From a bacterium (GTDB lineage Bacteria; Patescibacteriota; Minisyncoccia; Phycocordibacterales; GCA-002787175), in the NCBI GenBank assembly GCA_030689285.1, contig JAUYJM010000009.1, positions 1 to 34,920 on the forward strand: DNA of 34,920 nucleotides, given 5' to 3'. Of the stretch, positions 404-15,195 are shown one piece after another (position 1 is the stretch's first letter; each line of letters opens with the position of its first letter). The notes under the pieces were generated by a model. That model did not search any database, was not told where the DNA came from, and worked only from the letters and a program-made list of their open reading frames with translations. The translations under genes and the position numbers were made by a program.

Positions 404-919
404 CTACTCTTCGTACTGACACTGACAGAACTCTGGCAAAAGTCCGCAGTTCGGACATTCTTCGTTGGCATGCTCCAGCCATAAGGGAATTTCTTCTTCC
501 TCGTGACATGGTAGTCCCATTTGTGGAACTTCAAGTGTGTGGTCGTCATCGTCCGGAGTGCAGGTGCACTTTGAACCAAACTCCCCACAATCTTGGCACG
601 GCCATTCGTTCGCTAACTCCTCGTAATAGAGCTCTTCTGCTCTTTCATTTTCGAGGGCTTCTGCTTCGGACTTTTTCTCGATCCATGCTTTAGCTAATGC
701 TTGGCTTTCTTCGCATTTGCGCAGCTCTTCTTCGAGATCGATCGGCTGGCGATGCTCTTTCTCTGGCAGTTGATCATCGGTCGCTGGATTAATCCATTGA
801 CGCAACTCTTCATCTGTAAGAGTGGAGTACCACTTTTCAATCTGCCTGTCTGATCTGTAGTTTTTGCAAACTTGAACTAATTTTTGTACTTTTTCAACGA
901 GCCATTTGGTGATAGACAT
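404..919 (-). CDS. Hypothetical acidic protein with a duplicated C-terminal CxxCG-x5-CxC motif
   Basis: 171-aa ORF with AAAGGA 8 nt upstream of the ATG, its own consensus promoter and its own terminator. The C-terminus carries CQDCGEFGSKCTC and CPNCGLLPEFCQC. No family was recognised. Confidence 0.6.
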   Translation of the reverse strand: MSITKWLVEKVQKLVQVCKNYRSDRQIEKWYSTLTDEELRQWINPATDDQLPEKEHRQPIDLEEELRKCEESQALAKAWIEKKSEAEALENERAEELYYEELANEWPCQDCGEFGSKCTCTPDDDDHTLEVPQMGLPCHEEEEIPLWLEHANEECPNCGLLPEFCQCQYEE

Positions 920-1096: not shown

Positions 1097-1125
1097 ATTA
1101 TACACCTTCTGTGCAAATTTGTCAA
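1097..1125 (-). promoter_or_regulatory. Consensus sigma70 promoter driving the 404-919 gene through a ~170-nt leader
   Basis: Minus strand has TTGACA (1120-1125), a 17-nt spacer and TATAAT (1097-1102). Both hexamers match the consensus perfectly. Confidence 0.6.
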
Positions 1126-1148: not shown

Positions 1149-1189
1149 AAAAAAATGGCTCTGTTCTGTTGCAGGCAGAAGCAGAGCCA
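1149..1189 (-). terminator. Rho-independent terminator ending the candidate ncRNA
   Basis: Minus strand reads TGGCTCTGcTTCTGcctgcaaCAGAACAGAGCCA followed by TTTTTTT. No T-run follows in the plus orientation. Confidence 0.7.
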
Positions 1190-1431
1190 CATAACCATCC
1201 CGAGATGGTTGTTTCCGTCCACATAACCGGAAGAGCGCCCCGAATCATTGGGAATCTTGCTTGGTTATTGGACGGCAATCAAAGCTGGGGACATCCGCGA
1301 ACTCAACTCAACCTTGAGGTCTTGTCTTCGCGTTTTGTCGGCCGTGTGGGGCTGGCCTAACCTTCACAGACATTTCCTCTTCAACCAGAAAAAAGGTTGA
1401 GGAGCTCAGTCGCGGAGGCCCCAGCTAAATC
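1149..1431 (-). ncRNA. Candidate independent structured RNA (~283 nt), class unknown
   Basis: Its own promoter (1439-1466) and intrinsic terminator (1149-1189) bracket a region with no credible ORF. A long-range helix pairs 1283-1300 with 1410-1426 (AGCTGGGG/CCCCAGCT plus TCCGCGA/TCGCGGA). Further helices are 1263-1275 with 1215-1228, and hairpins at 1194-1210 and 1376-1403. Confidence 0.4.
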
Positions 1432-1438
1432 TTTTAAG

Positions 1439-1466
1439 ATAATAAACCTTCCTGTTTTTTTGTCAA
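1439..1466 (-). promoter_or_regulatory. Sigma70-like promoter of the candidate ncRNA
   Basis: Minus strand has TTGACA (1461-1466), a 16-nt spacer and TATTAT (1439-1444). The predicted transcription start lies just 5' of the first helix strand. Confidence 0.45.
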
Positions 1467-6631: not shown

Positions 6632-8506
6632 ATGAGAAACATTAGAAACTTCTGCATTATCGCTCACATAGACCACGGCAAATCCACGCTTGCCGACAGA
6701 ATGCTTCAGGTTACCGGCACGATTCCGGAACGCAAGATGCGCGAGCAGGTTTTGGATGATATGGAGCTTGAGCGCGAGAGGGGTATTACCATAAAAATGA
6801 CCCCAGTCCGTATGATTTGGAGGCCAAATCATACGGACAAAATTCGCAATCCTTCATCTTTAATCCGTAACGAAGAAAGTCAAGGATTAAGGGTTAAAGA
6901 TGAAGGATTATCAGATTCAGAATGCTTCATTCTGAATCTGATTGACACTCCGGGTCACATTGACTTTGCTTACGAAGTTTCGCGTGCCCTAAAAGCGGTG
7001 GAAGGGGCGATTCTTCTCGTGGACTCCACTCAAGGCGTGCAGGCGCAAACGCTTTCGGTTTTAAGTATGGCAAAAAGCGCCGGACTGACTATAATCCCAG
7101 TCGTGTCAAAGGTGGATTCTCCCTACGCTCGCATAAGCGAATCAAAAGAAGAAATAGCAAAAATTTTAGAGTGTGACACAAAAGACATTTTGGAAGTATC
7201 GGGAAAGACCGGACAAGGCGTGACGGAGCTTTTGGACGTAATCGTACAAAAAGTGCCACCCCCGAGTTTTTTACCTGCAAGAGAAGACAACCAACTGCAA
7301 GCATTGGTATTTGACTTTGAATATTCCACTCATACGGGGGTAATAGTATATGTGAGAATTTTCAGCGGCAACGTAACGGGCAAAGAAAAACTTAGTTTCG
7401 CGGTCGCAAAGCGTGATTTTTCTCCAATTGAAATAGGAATATTTTCGCCTGACAGGGTTTTGTCAAAGCAGATTGCTTCCGGGGAAATAGGTTATATTGT
7501 GACGGGAATAAAAGAGCCCGGCGTGGCTTCAGTCGGAGACACGGTTGTTTTGTCAAAAGGGTTGCTTAAAGCTCTACCCGGATACGAGAGGCCGTCTCCG
7601 GTGGTTTGGGCCAGTGTGTATCCTGAAGATGCGGACGATTTCAACAGCTTAAGGCAGGCATTGGGGAAACTCCGTCTTTCAGATTCATCTTTTTCTTTTG
7701 AAGAAGAGTCATCGGGACTTTTGGGCAGGGGTTTTAGGTGCGGATTCTTGGGAATGCTCCACTTGGAGATTGTTACAGAACGGCTTCGCAGAGAATTTAA
7801 TCTGGAACTTGTGGTTACGACTCCGAGTATTACATACGAAATTACCACAAAAAGGGGCGAAAAAATAACTGCGTATTCGCCAATTCAGTTTCCCAGTTAT
7901 GGTGATATATCAGGTATAAAAGAGCCTTGGGTCAAGATACGCGTAATCACTCCGGCGGACTATCTTGGAGATATAACCCAGCTTTTATATAAGCATGAAG
8001 CGGTTTTGGGTGATACTTCAGATTTTGGAGATAACCGTTCGGAGATTTACGCCGAAATGCCTTTGAGAGAGCTTATGCGAGGTTTTTTTGACGAACTCAA
8101 AAGCGTTTCATCTGGTTTCGCCTCTCTTTCTTACGAGATGGCGGAGCTTAAGGACGCGGATGTTCTTCGTATGGATATACTTGTGGCGGACGAAATCGTA
8201 CCGGCTTTTTCAAGAGTTGTGTCAAAAAGAAAGGCGGAGGAAGAATCGGAATCGGCGGTTGAGAAGCTTTTTTCCATACTGCCCCGCCAAATGTTTGTGA
8301 CAAAAATTCAGGCTACCGCGATGGGCAGAATAATATCGTCAAAAACCTTGTCGGCTCTCAAAAAAGACGTTACAGGTTATCTTTACGGAGGAGATATTAC
8401 AAGAAAGAAAAAATTGTGGGAAAAACAAAAAAAGGGAAAAAAGAAGATGAAGGAAAGAGGAAAAGTCAACATCCCTCACGATGTGTTTGTGAAGATGATG
8501 AAATAG
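6632..8506 (+). CDS. lepA: Elongation factor 4 (LepA)
   Basis: MRNIRNFCIIAHIDHGKSTLADR, DTPGHIDF, GFRCGFLGMLHLEI and the C-terminal YGGDITRKKKLWEKQKKGKKKMK are LepA hallmarks. The start was chosen at the conserved MRNIRNF; an alternative ATG is at 6581. The upstream part of the ORF lies in repeat modules. Confidence 0.9.
   Translation: MRNIRNFCIIAHIDHGKSTLADRMLQVTGTIPERKMREQVLDDMELERERGITIKMTPVRMIWRPNHTDKIRNPSSLIRNEESQGLRVKDEGLSDSECFILNLIDTPGHIDFAYEVSRALKAVEGAILLVDSTQGVQAQTLSVLSMAKSAGLTIIPVVSKVDSPYARISESKEEIAKILECDTKDILEVSGKTGQGVTELLDVIVQKVPPPSFLPAREDNQLQALVFDFEYSTHTGVIVYVRIFSGNVTGKEKLSFAVAKRDFSPIEIGIFSPDRVLSKQIASGEIGYIVTGIKEPGVASVGDTVVLSKGLLKALPGYERPSPVVWASVYPEDADDFNSLRQALGKLRLSDSSFSFEEESSGLLGRGFRCGFLGMLHLEIVTERLRREFNLELVVTTPSITYEITTKRGEKITAYSPIQFPSYGDISGIKEPWVKIRVITPADYLGDITQLLYKHEAVLGDTSDFGDNRSEIYAEMPLRELMRGFFDELKSVSSGFASLSYEMAELKDADVLRMDILVADEIVPAFSRVVSKRKAEEESESAVEKLFSILPRQMFVTKIQATAMGRIISSKTLSALKKDVTGYLYGGDITRKKKLWEKQKKGKKKMKERGKVNIPHDVFVKMMK
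6808..6940 (+). repeat. Three consecutive palindromes embedded in-frame in the lepA G domain
   Basis: 6808-6836 has a perfect 11-bp stem (ccgtatgattt/aaatcatacgg). 6848-6909 is an imperfect long stem (aatccttcatctttaa.../...ttaaagatgaaggatt). 6912-6940 has a perfect 13-bp stem (cagattcagaatg/cattctgaatctg). The RGITIK to DTPGH segment is about 27 aa longer than in E. coli or B. subtilis LepA. Confidence 0.7.
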
Positions 8507-13842: not shown

Positions 13843-15195
13843 ATGGGGTTTACCAAAATTTTTAGACGCAAAATCGCTTTTTTCGCGCTTGTCGCTGTTA
13901 TCGTGGGAGTTTCTCCTGTCCTTATTTCTGCTCAGACAACCGTAAGCGCGGTGGCAGAAAGAGAAGCGGAACTTAGGAGGGAGTTGGCGGAATTGGAAGC
14001 GGAAATAGAAAAACAGCAGGAAATTTTGAGAAGCAAACAAAGAGAATCTGTTTCTCTGGAAAGGGACATAGCAATACTCAATGCCCGTATAGAGGAGGCG
14101 AAGCTTACTATTCGCGCCAAAACGATACGCATAAACGGACTGACATCCGATATCGGCGTCAAAACTGAAATCATCGGCGATTTGGAAGAAAAAATAGAAA
14201 AAAATAAAAGCTCTTTGTCGGAGCTTATTAGGCGCACAAATGAGTATGACGATTATTCTCTATTGGAGCTTCTGCTTAGCCAGGAAGAAATGTCTGAATT
14301 TTTTGCCGATGCCGATTCTTATTTCACACTCCAGAGCTCCTTGTATTCTTTGGTGCAGAACGTAAAGAATAATAAAAACGCGAACGAAAACGAACGAAAT
14401 AAGCTTGACCAGACCAGAAAAGCGGAGATAGATGCCCGCGTAGACGTGGAGGCGGAAAAAAGGATTATTGAAAAAAGTGAGGTTGAAAAGAAAAAACTGC
14501 TTGCGATAAGCAAACAGGAAGAATCGGCCTATGAGAAGGTTTTGGAGGAGAGGCAAAAAAAGGCCGCGTCAATAAGGAGCGCGCTTTTCGCACTGCGGGA
14601 TACAGCGGCAATCCCGTTTGGAGAAGCGCTTGAGTACGCGACCAAGGCGTCCGGTAAAACCGGAGTCAGACCGGCTTTTATATTAGCCATACTTACGCAA
14701 GAGTCAAATTTGGGTGAAAATGTCGGTACTTGTAATAGGCCGCAAGACACAAAAAAGTGGCGGGATATTATGCCCGGTCCAGACGATAATTCTTGGAGAG
14801 ACGACCAGACGGTTTTCCAGTCTCTTATGGATGAACTAGGTTTTGACCCCGATGTGATGCCGCTTTCTTGTCCGTACGGAGGGGGGTGGGGAGGAGCGAT
14901 GGGACCTTCGCAATTTATACCTACCACATGGCAGGCCTATAAATCTCGTGTAGCCAAGGTTACCGGTCATAACCCACCAAATCCGTGGAATCCGGAAGAT
15001 GCCATTACCGCGACTTCTTTGTATCTTATGGACCTGGGCGCGGACAAGGGAGGATATAGCGCCGAGCTTGAGGCGGCGCTTCGCTACTACGCCGGTAGCA
15101 ACTGGAACAAGCCTCAAAACGCATTTTACGGGCGACAAGTCCTCGCTCACGCAGAGGATATACAAGAGAATATGATTGACCCGCTCAACTTCTAA
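13843..15195 (+). CDS. Secreted or membrane-anchored coiled-coil protein with C-terminal lytic transglycosylase (MltB/SLT_2-like) domain
   Basis: N-terminal hydrophobic segment, about 230 aa of heptad-rich coiled coil, then AFILAILTQESNLG (catalytic Glu) and GAMGPSQFIPTTWQAY. Confidence 0.75.
   Translation: MGFTKIFRRKIAFFALVAVIVGVSPVLISAQTTVSAVAEREAELRRELAELEAEIEKQQEILRSKQRESVSLERDIAILNARIEEAKLTIRAKTIRINGLTSDIGVKTEIIGDLEEKIEKNKSSLSELIRRTNEYDDYSLLELLLSQEEMSEFFADADSYFTLQSSLYSLVQNVKNNKNANENERNKLDQTRKAEIDARVDVEAEKRIIEKSEVEKKKLLAISKQEESAYEKVLEERQKKAASIRSALFALRDTAAIPFGEALEYATKASGKTGVRPAFILAILTQESNLGENVGTCNRPQDTKKWRDIMPGPDDNSWRDDQTVFQSLMDELGFDPDVMPLSCPYGGGWGGAMGPSQFIPTTWQAYKSRVAKVTGHNPPNPWNPEDAITATSLYLMDLGADKGGYSAELEAALRYYAGSNWNKPQNAFYGRQVLAHAEDIQENMIDPLNF

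Follow-up and report, generated by a model that had tools for sequence, protein, structure and literature searches.

What is encoded by a compact unit of DNA that runs from a strong promoter to a terminator and offers no credible protein product, in a bacterium whose genome has little room for anything dispensable? Genomes of the candidate phyla radiation (CPR), to which Parcubacteria belong, are tiny, at ~0.7 Mb, and hold very little non-coding DNA. In uncultured CPR bacteria and Parcubacteria, RNA-based regulation is, to our knowledge, almost unexplored. The locus considered here occupies positions 1149-1466 on the minus strand of contig JAUYJM010000009.1, in a Parcubacteria-type genome (G000) of 689 kb in 79 contigs that is 95.7% complete and typical of the CPR. 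The window that was analysed is the stretch of 34,920 nucleotides that begins at position 1 of this contig, and all positions below refer to it unless another genome or contig is named. Comparisons were made mainly with two other genomes of the same genus of ultra-small groundwater bacteria, G001 and G002.

A stand-alone transcription unit with no conserved reading frame

A preliminary description of this DNA, made from the sequence alone, had proposed an independent minus-strand unit in which a TTGACA-16-TATTAT promoter is followed by ~283 nt with no credible open reading frame and by a strong intrinsic terminator, with a perfect-consensus promoter for the next gene beginning only afterwards. 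A promoter scan recovered both promoters at the places proposed, and the terminator is present in the minimum free energy (MFE) fold of the transcript as a stem with one bulge followed by a run of seven uridines (Table 1). Sites that match the promoter consensus at 11 or more of 12 positions number 45 in the G000 genome, compared with ~9 expected by chance, and the promoters at 1466..1439 and 1125..1097 are among them. Because such sites are rare in the genome, both promoters are credible. From the first of them, transcription is predicted to start at ~1432, and the intrinsic terminator would stop it at ~1150.

Table 1 Features of the RNA locus and its surroundings in the window
Feature	Position	Strand	Detail and evidence
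Sigma-70-type promoter	1439-1466	minus	-35 box TTGACA 1466-1461, 16-nt spacer, -10 box TATTAT 1444-1439; 11/12 match
Predicted transcript, ~285 nt, two-domain structured non-coding RNA	1149-1432	minus	Fold z-score, homologue, negative Rfam search
P1 5' strand with conserved block UUUAGCUGGG	1410-1431	minus	MFE fold; pairs with 1277-1300
P2 5' strand GCUCCUCAACCUUU	1392-1405	minus	14 nt identical in both species
Domain 1 multi-helix core	1316-1391	minus	U/C-rich strand; invariant junction GGAAAUGUC 1369-1377; short helices 1365-1379 with 1316-1332; apical hairpin 1337-1361
P2 3' strand with tandem GUUGAGUUGAG (1302-1312)	1301-1315	minus	Identical in both species; two pairing registers
P1 3' strand with conserved CGGAUGnnCCCAGC, closing domain 1	1277-1300	minus	MFE fold, comparison with G002
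Domain 2	1215-1275	minus	Helix 1263-1275 with 1215-1228, core GUCCA/UGGAC; encloses a variable hairpin and conserved GGGCGCUCUU 1231-1240
Hairpin with invariant core CCAUCUCGGGAUGG (1195-1208)	1193-1210	minus	Flanking pairs covary, A-U to G-C in G002
Intrinsic terminator	1149-1190	minus	14-bp interrupted G+C-rich stem (one bulge) 1155-1190, then U7 1149-1155
Next promoter, perfect consensus TTGACA-17-TATAAT	1097-1125	minus	Serves the 171-aa gene 919-404; marks the end of the RNA unit

The open reading frames that overlap the unit are short (43 and 47 aa) and have non-ATG starts. Neither is conserved: when the two known copies of the RNA were compared, no small reading frame was found in common, the copy in G002 having an unrelated 103-aa frame, and the insertions and deletions that separate the copies are not multiples of three. 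Among the sequencing runs compared, the RNA is present only in the source groundwater DNA run, and no RNA run covers it; in four other runs the matches are limited to two short, unrelated elements next to it, with positions 1063-1482 uncovered, a result that bears on expression in neither direction. The analysis supports reading the locus as a gene of its own for a structured non-coding RNA of two domains, with transcript ends that are predictions from the sequence. It is very probably a real, functional RNA gene, whose expression we infer.

The same features could belong to a leader that acts in cis, for example a riboswitch or an attenuator, in which read-through of the terminator would add to the expression of the co-oriented gene downstream. 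The next gene does lie on the same strand in both G000 and G002, a terminator closes the RNA, which is also true of expression platforms, and the downstream products could in both cases be metal-related, with a Fur-family regulator and a ZIP transporter in G002 and a Cys-rich acidic protein in G000. However, in G000 and G002 alike the terminator is followed by a consensus promoter before the gene begins, and the downstream genes of the two genomes are unrelated to each other. Inspection revealed no convincing anti-terminator that could pair with the strands of the terminator, no riboswitch or T-box model matches, and the ~250 nt ahead of the terminator far exceed the size of a typical aptamer. 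We consider a leader very doubtful.

The transcript is predicted to fold into two domains

The 284-nt transcript has an MFE of -118.8 kcal/mol, compared with -85.9 ± 5.2 kcal/mol for dinucleotide-shuffled sequences (z = -6.35), with none of 200 shuffles folding as well. In the predicted structure, domain 1 consists of a rod of ~33 bp, formed by helices P1 and P2, that closes a multi-branch core, and it is followed by domain 2, the hairpin at 1193-1210, and the terminator. The main helices had been anticipated in the preliminary description, which had drawn a long-range pairing of 1410-1426 with 1283-1300, a second-domain helix of 1263-1275 with 1215-1228, and a hairpin at 1194-1210. All three reappear in the MFE fold, the first of them extended to 1410-1431 with 1277-1300, and the hairpin one nucleotide longer.

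The tandem GUUGAGUUGAG in the 3' strand of P2 allows this helix to form in two registers. Register A lies at the MFE or within 1.7 kcal/mol of it and register B is 7-11 kcal/mol worse, with A clearly favoured in both species. It had also been proposed that the segment cctcaacc can pair with either of two partners. In G000 this pairing choice exists: GGUUGA at 1381-1386 would give a local hairpin and GGUUGAG at 1306-1312 the long-range P2, in folds that are 1.7 kcal/mol apart, but the proximal partner is missing from G002, where only the distal one is conserved, as the tandem GUUGAGUUGAG. Because the proximal GGUUGA is lacking there, a conserved switch between the two partners is not supported.

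A homologue in the same genus keeps the unit and its helices

When the three genomes of the family were searched by BLAST, a single homologue emerged, in G002, which belongs to the same genus. The block of homology has the -35 box and the terminator as its exact limits, with 74% identity. The G002 copy keeps the -35 box, together with an A-tract, and the -10 box, and a consensus-like promoter again follows directly after the terminator. The boundaries of the unit are therefore kept in the second species, as expected for the independent promoter-to-terminator unit of the preliminary description, which had also pointed to related genomes as a check on the RNA.

Sequence conservation between the two copies is concentrated in invariant blocks, some of them 9-14 nt long (UUUAGCUGGG, GCUCCUCAACCUUU, GGAAAUGUC, GUUGAGUUGAG, CGGAUG..CCCAGC, GGGCGCUCUU, GUGGAC, and CCAUCUCGGGAUGG), with indel-rich hairpins between them, and the core of domain 1 carries an additional 42-nt hairpin in G002. 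The helices are kept through compensatory changes. P1 has a G-C to A-U change, the helix of domain 2 is retained with a C-G to A-U change when the sequences are compared manually, and the terminator is conserved with compensatory changes in its inner stem. The G002 RNA on its own folds with z = -7.88. In a hand-anchored two-sequence alignment, RNAalifold gave 56 consensus pairs, of which eight show double compensatory changes, six show single compatible changes, and two are broken, both of them at gaps; RNAalifold favours compatible pairs by construction and only two sequences are compared, so these counts are suggestive and carry no significance of the kind that R-scape assigns. Differing columns make up 22 of the 108 paired positions (20%), compared with 72 of the 133 unpaired positions (54%). 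The consensus energy is -68.3, compared with -25.4 ± 4.2 in column shuffles (z = -10.1). With two sequences, the compensatory changes are suggestive of helices that are under selection.

The degree of divergence can be read against other genes of the genus. G000 and G002 are far diverged, their orthologous proteins being 37-88% identical, and LepA is 72% identical between G000 and G001. The RNase P RNAs of G000 and G001, taken as a benchmark, are 74% identical and, like the two copies of the orphan RNA, alternate between invariant blocks and peripheral hairpins that vary. Because the 74% identity of the two RNA copies matches that of RNase P RNA between congeners, the RNA evolves as a constrained, functional structured RNA would. 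A non-functional relic, conserved through recent transfer and not through selection, would fit the small number of copies known, which is two, but the 26% divergence between them is placed so that every change in a stem keeps its pairing, and both copies have retained an intact promoter and terminator. We regard this explanation as highly improbable.

The RNA was found in two species and its neighbours differ

The RNA gene is single-copy in G000. A covariance model of domain 1 matched only G000 and G002 among 151 relatives representing 118 families of the order. The third congener, G001, is 93% complete and has no copy detectable by BLAST or by the covariance model with lax filters, and none was found with the covariance model in ~150 genomes of the class. 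BLAST searches of 401 genomes of the order returned only short matches with E ≥ 0.005, which we take as chance. One covariance-model match of 19.7 bits, in the relative G095, was dismissed: it aligns mainly to the insert specific to G002. Viral contigs, phage records, and plasmid records yielded nothing real. Scanning metagenome contigs for a three-block pattern gave three matches, none of which passes the covariance model, and a two-block pattern, which proved too unspecific, matched genome contigs at least 120 times across unrelated phyla, about the number expected by chance. The family is narrow, being seen in two species of one genus and in two of three congeners. No copy turned up in ~300 further genomes of the order and class, which speaks against a core role in the cell.

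In G000 the RNA gene sits 1.1 kb from the end of the contig. Upstream of it are 260 bp of interspersed repeats and a divergent gene for a 1392-aa peptidoglycan-binding surface protein, and downstream is the gene for an orphan, acidic, Cys-rich protein of 171 aa (404-919, minus strand) that is absent from G001 and G002. In G002 the flanking genes are a pilin-like gene upstream and those for the Fur-family regulator and ZIP transporter downstream. Pfam scans of the neighbours found no reverse transcriptase, transposase, Cas, TnpB/IscB, recombinase, or toxin gene beside the RNA in either genome, so the RNA lacks the adjacent partner gene that marks element-associated guide or template RNAs such as retron msr-msd, DRT ncRNA, omega RNA, and bridge RNA.

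Both sides of the G000 locus carry sequence that recurs elsewhere. Just upstream of the RNA promoter, positions 1477-1736 form a mosaic of short repeats with copies of 85-100% identity on more than 25 G000 contigs, and the part at 1483-1587 also occurs, with different flanks, on many contigs from other groundwater and freshwater metagenomes. On the other side, 60 nt at 1000-1059, in the minus-strand leader of the 171-aa gene, are found in three unrelated runs as well (groundwater X2, metagenome X4, and wastewater metatranscriptome X19). The pieces from X4 and X19 differ from the window by one letter, with weaker homology past 1059, and the segment has no Rfam match. The segment has the appearance of a leader or gene module that is widely shared and may be mobile.

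These surroundings raise the question of whether the RNA is itself cargo or an accessory of a mobile or defence-related element. Its patchy distribution at non-syntenic positions would then be explained. Two of three congeners carry it, at different loci; in G000 it lies near a contig end beside the mosaic of genome-wide repeats, and the gene on its other side is strain-specific, with a leader that recurs almost unchanged in unrelated metagenomes. Against this stand the missing reverse transcriptase, transposase, TnpB/IscB, Cas, and toxin genes next to the RNA in both genomes, its single-copy state with no visible terminal repeats, and the lack of matches in viral contigs, phages, and plasmids. 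In addition, its divergence equals that of the vertically inherited RNase P RNA. An RNA carried by a mobile element is, in our judgement, very unlikely.

The RNA matches no catalogued class

No Rfam 15 family reached its gathering threshold at the locus, and searches at E ≤ 10, made with 1.3 kb around the locus and with the RNA alone from both species, returned only noise. The preliminary description had been unable to place the RNA in a known class and had named an Rfam scan as the check; its exclusion of tmRNA, RNase P RNA, SRP RNA, and the T-box was borne out independently for each.

A universal RNA in disguise, whether RNase P RNA, tmRNA, or SRP RNA, would nevertheless be of fitting size. 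The RNA also shows superficial echoes of the CR-I and CR-V elements of RNase P RNA (GAGGAAAUGUC and ACAGAA...GCC), and G000 has no tmRNA or SRP RNA match. However, RNase P RNA is encoded elsewhere in G000, G002 has a separate tmRNA, and the SRP is missing from the lineage, which brings the probability of a disguised universal RNA close to nil.

For RNase P, the true G000 gene lies at G000:C37:1806-2228 (84.8 bits, E = 8.5e-27) and aligns with the RNase P RNA of G001, and the locus studied here has no RF00010 or RF00011 match at E ≤ 10, so a divergent RNase P RNA was rejected. A P4-like pairing of GAGGAAAUGUC with the terminator region was likewise set aside, as inspection of the sequence showed that it is not kept in G002. 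Like bacterial RNase P RNA (RF00010), the orphan RNA is of similar size and combines 74% identity between congeners with invariant blocks and indel-rich peripheral hairpins, but unlike it, the orphan RNA has neither a conserved P4 pseudoknot nor a match to the model. As separate observations on RNase P in this genus, the score of the G000 gene, 84.8 bits, is below the Rfam gathering score of 100, and in G002, although it is 98% complete, neither RF00010 (E ≤ 1e-5) nor a BLAST search with the gene of G000 revealed an RNase P RNA. Either a gap in the assembly or strong divergence of the RNase P RNA could be the reason.

For tmRNA (RF00023), neither Rfam nor ARAGORN gives a match at the locus, and G002 has a canonical tmRNA of 110 bits besides the RNA described here. 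No tmRNA was found in the G000 assembly by either method. It is present in five of the five relatives tested, including G002, where it lies at a contig edge, and its absence from G000 is likely an assembly gap.

For the signal recognition particle, no SRP RNA (RF00169 or RF01854) was found in the RNA locus, in G000, or in five relatives. Pfam searches for the Ffh M domain (PF02978) and the SRP54-type GTPase domain (PF00448; Ffh and FtsY) were negative in G000, G001, G002, G003, G012, and G095, single-contig genomes included. A tblastn search of G000 with Escherichia coli Ffh was negative too, and controls from the same E. coli locus (S16, TrmD, and L19) were positive. Genes ffh and ffs are absent from Parcubacteria (Nelson and Stegen, PMC4508563). 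With Ffh and FtsY both absent from the lineage, SRP RNA was ruled out as the identity of this RNA, and loss of the SRP pathway accounts for the lack of an SRP RNA match. That FtsY is absent too, in addition to the ffh and ffs loss already published, might merit attention.

Two G000 loci that contain GGAAGCA were considered as SRP RNA candidates and rejected as copies of a palindromic repeat. These loci, at G000:C20 ~14270-14400 (L167) and G000:C65 ~6810-6940 (L168), each hold a copy of an imperfect ~120-nt palindrome that has no Rfam match. Its arms, CCUAUCCC.UGACGGCAUAAUUUUCGGA and UUCCGAAAAU.AUGCCGUCA.GGG, would form a long hairpin, and a third look-alike is found on G000 contig C3. A related observation concerns G002:C25:4264-4677 (L161), where the N-terminal part of a 137-aa open reading frame matches several G000 contigs, on both strands, with ~90% identity; this is probably no protein but a palindromic repeat element.

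The RNA could be the 6S- or Ms1-like RNA of its lineage, with domain 1 (~150-175 nt) binding RNA polymerase as a promoter mimic and thereby tuning transcription. Since neither G000 nor 100 relatives yielded an Rfam 6S RNA, the role would be free. Like 6S RNA (SsrS, RF00013), the orphan RNA has a strong promoter of housekeeping type and a domain of suitable size closed by a long, irregular helix. Where 6S RNA has a two-stranded bubble flanked by two long helices, domain 1 has a multi-branch junction at its centre; in G002 just ~4 nt would be left for the 3' side of such a bubble, and on the 3' side of domain 1 a second domain of 130 nt follows. The 6S models have no match at E ≤ 10 in either copy, and a function of the 6S type should be widespread, whereas copies of this RNA were found in one genus only. 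A 6S-like role is decidedly unlikely. In the order-level sample of 101 genomes, no 6S candidate reaches the Rfam threshold, the best scoring 26.9 bits, in G084, so that 6S RNA is either absent from the order or unrecognisable in it.

A possible mode of action

The transcript would fold into the P1-P2 rod bearing a multi-helix core with invariant junction nucleotides, followed by two hairpins and the terminator. It would most likely act in trans, because the neighbouring genes differ between the genomes and a promoter intervenes before the next gene. We propose, tentatively and at somewhat less than even odds, that it binds protein, serving as a ribonucleoprotein scaffold or as a decoy and not as a simple antisense regulator. 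Protein binding is favoured over antisense action through a seed because the P2 strands, the hairpin, and the junction are invariant in sequence, because antisense sites are not enriched, and because of the size and multi-helix fold of the RNA. No candidate protein partner is linked to it. Taken as a whole, a stand-alone orphan RNA gene with a trans-acting, protein-binding product is the best explanation of the locus, with a probability that we estimate at roughly 0.45.

The main competing mechanism is that of a base-pairing regulatory small RNA, in which an invariant block would leave P2 and pair with the ribosome-binding regions of mRNAs encoded elsewhere in the genome; GCUCCUCAACCUUU, which is C/U-rich and has a CUCCU core, and the tandem GUUGAGUUGAG are examples of such blocks. 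Classical small RNAs likewise come from stand-alone units with strong promoters and terminators, blocks of 11-14 nt are invariant, CUCCU in the 5' strand of P2 resembles an anti-Shine-Dalgarno sequence, and the tandem GUUGAG provides alternative registers. In both species, however, the most stable helix ties up the candidate seeds. In a genome-wide search for antisense sites, exact complements of 9 nt or more to the conserved blocks occurred at about the chance frequency and were not concentrated at start codons; a 9-mer complement in tRNA-Gly(CCC) was considered coincidental. At ~285 nt and with several helices, the RNA is also much larger than a typical small RNA made of a seed and a terminator. 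A base-pairing regulator is therefore unlikely.

A further proposal goes beyond a protein-binding RNA of this general kind. The RNA might form the core of a new ribonucleoprotein or ribozyme of a small clade of Parcubacteria, with GGAAAUGUC, the fully invariant P2, and the CCAUCUCGGGAUGG hairpin as a specific protein-binding, ligand-binding, or catalytic core, and not a small regulatory RNA of generic type. We consider this quite unlikely.

Place among orphan RNAs

The RNA founds an orphan family that matches no catalogued RNA family and is so far known from G000 and G002. In its general character it resembles the raiA motif (ModT), OLE, ROOL, and Ms1 (Actinobacteria) RNAs. Each of these is encoded by a stand-alone gene, is a few hundred nucleotides long and non-coding, combines a multi-helix fold supported by compensatory changes with invariant junctions, and has a genomic context that gives little information. 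In contrast to this shared character, the orphan RNA has no similarity to any of them in sequence or by covariance model. The raiA motif/ModT, OLE, ROOL, and Ms1 families span hundreds to thousands of species, whereas the orphan RNA has been seen in two.

The value of the finding is limited by the two known species and by the lack of a functional clue, and the RNA adds to a growing list of orphan CPR RNAs without opening a window on a general mechanism. For the bacterium itself, purifying selection on the RNA, a near-consensus promoter, and a genome with very little non-coding DNA together suggest that this ~285-nt RNA is probably doing something useful.
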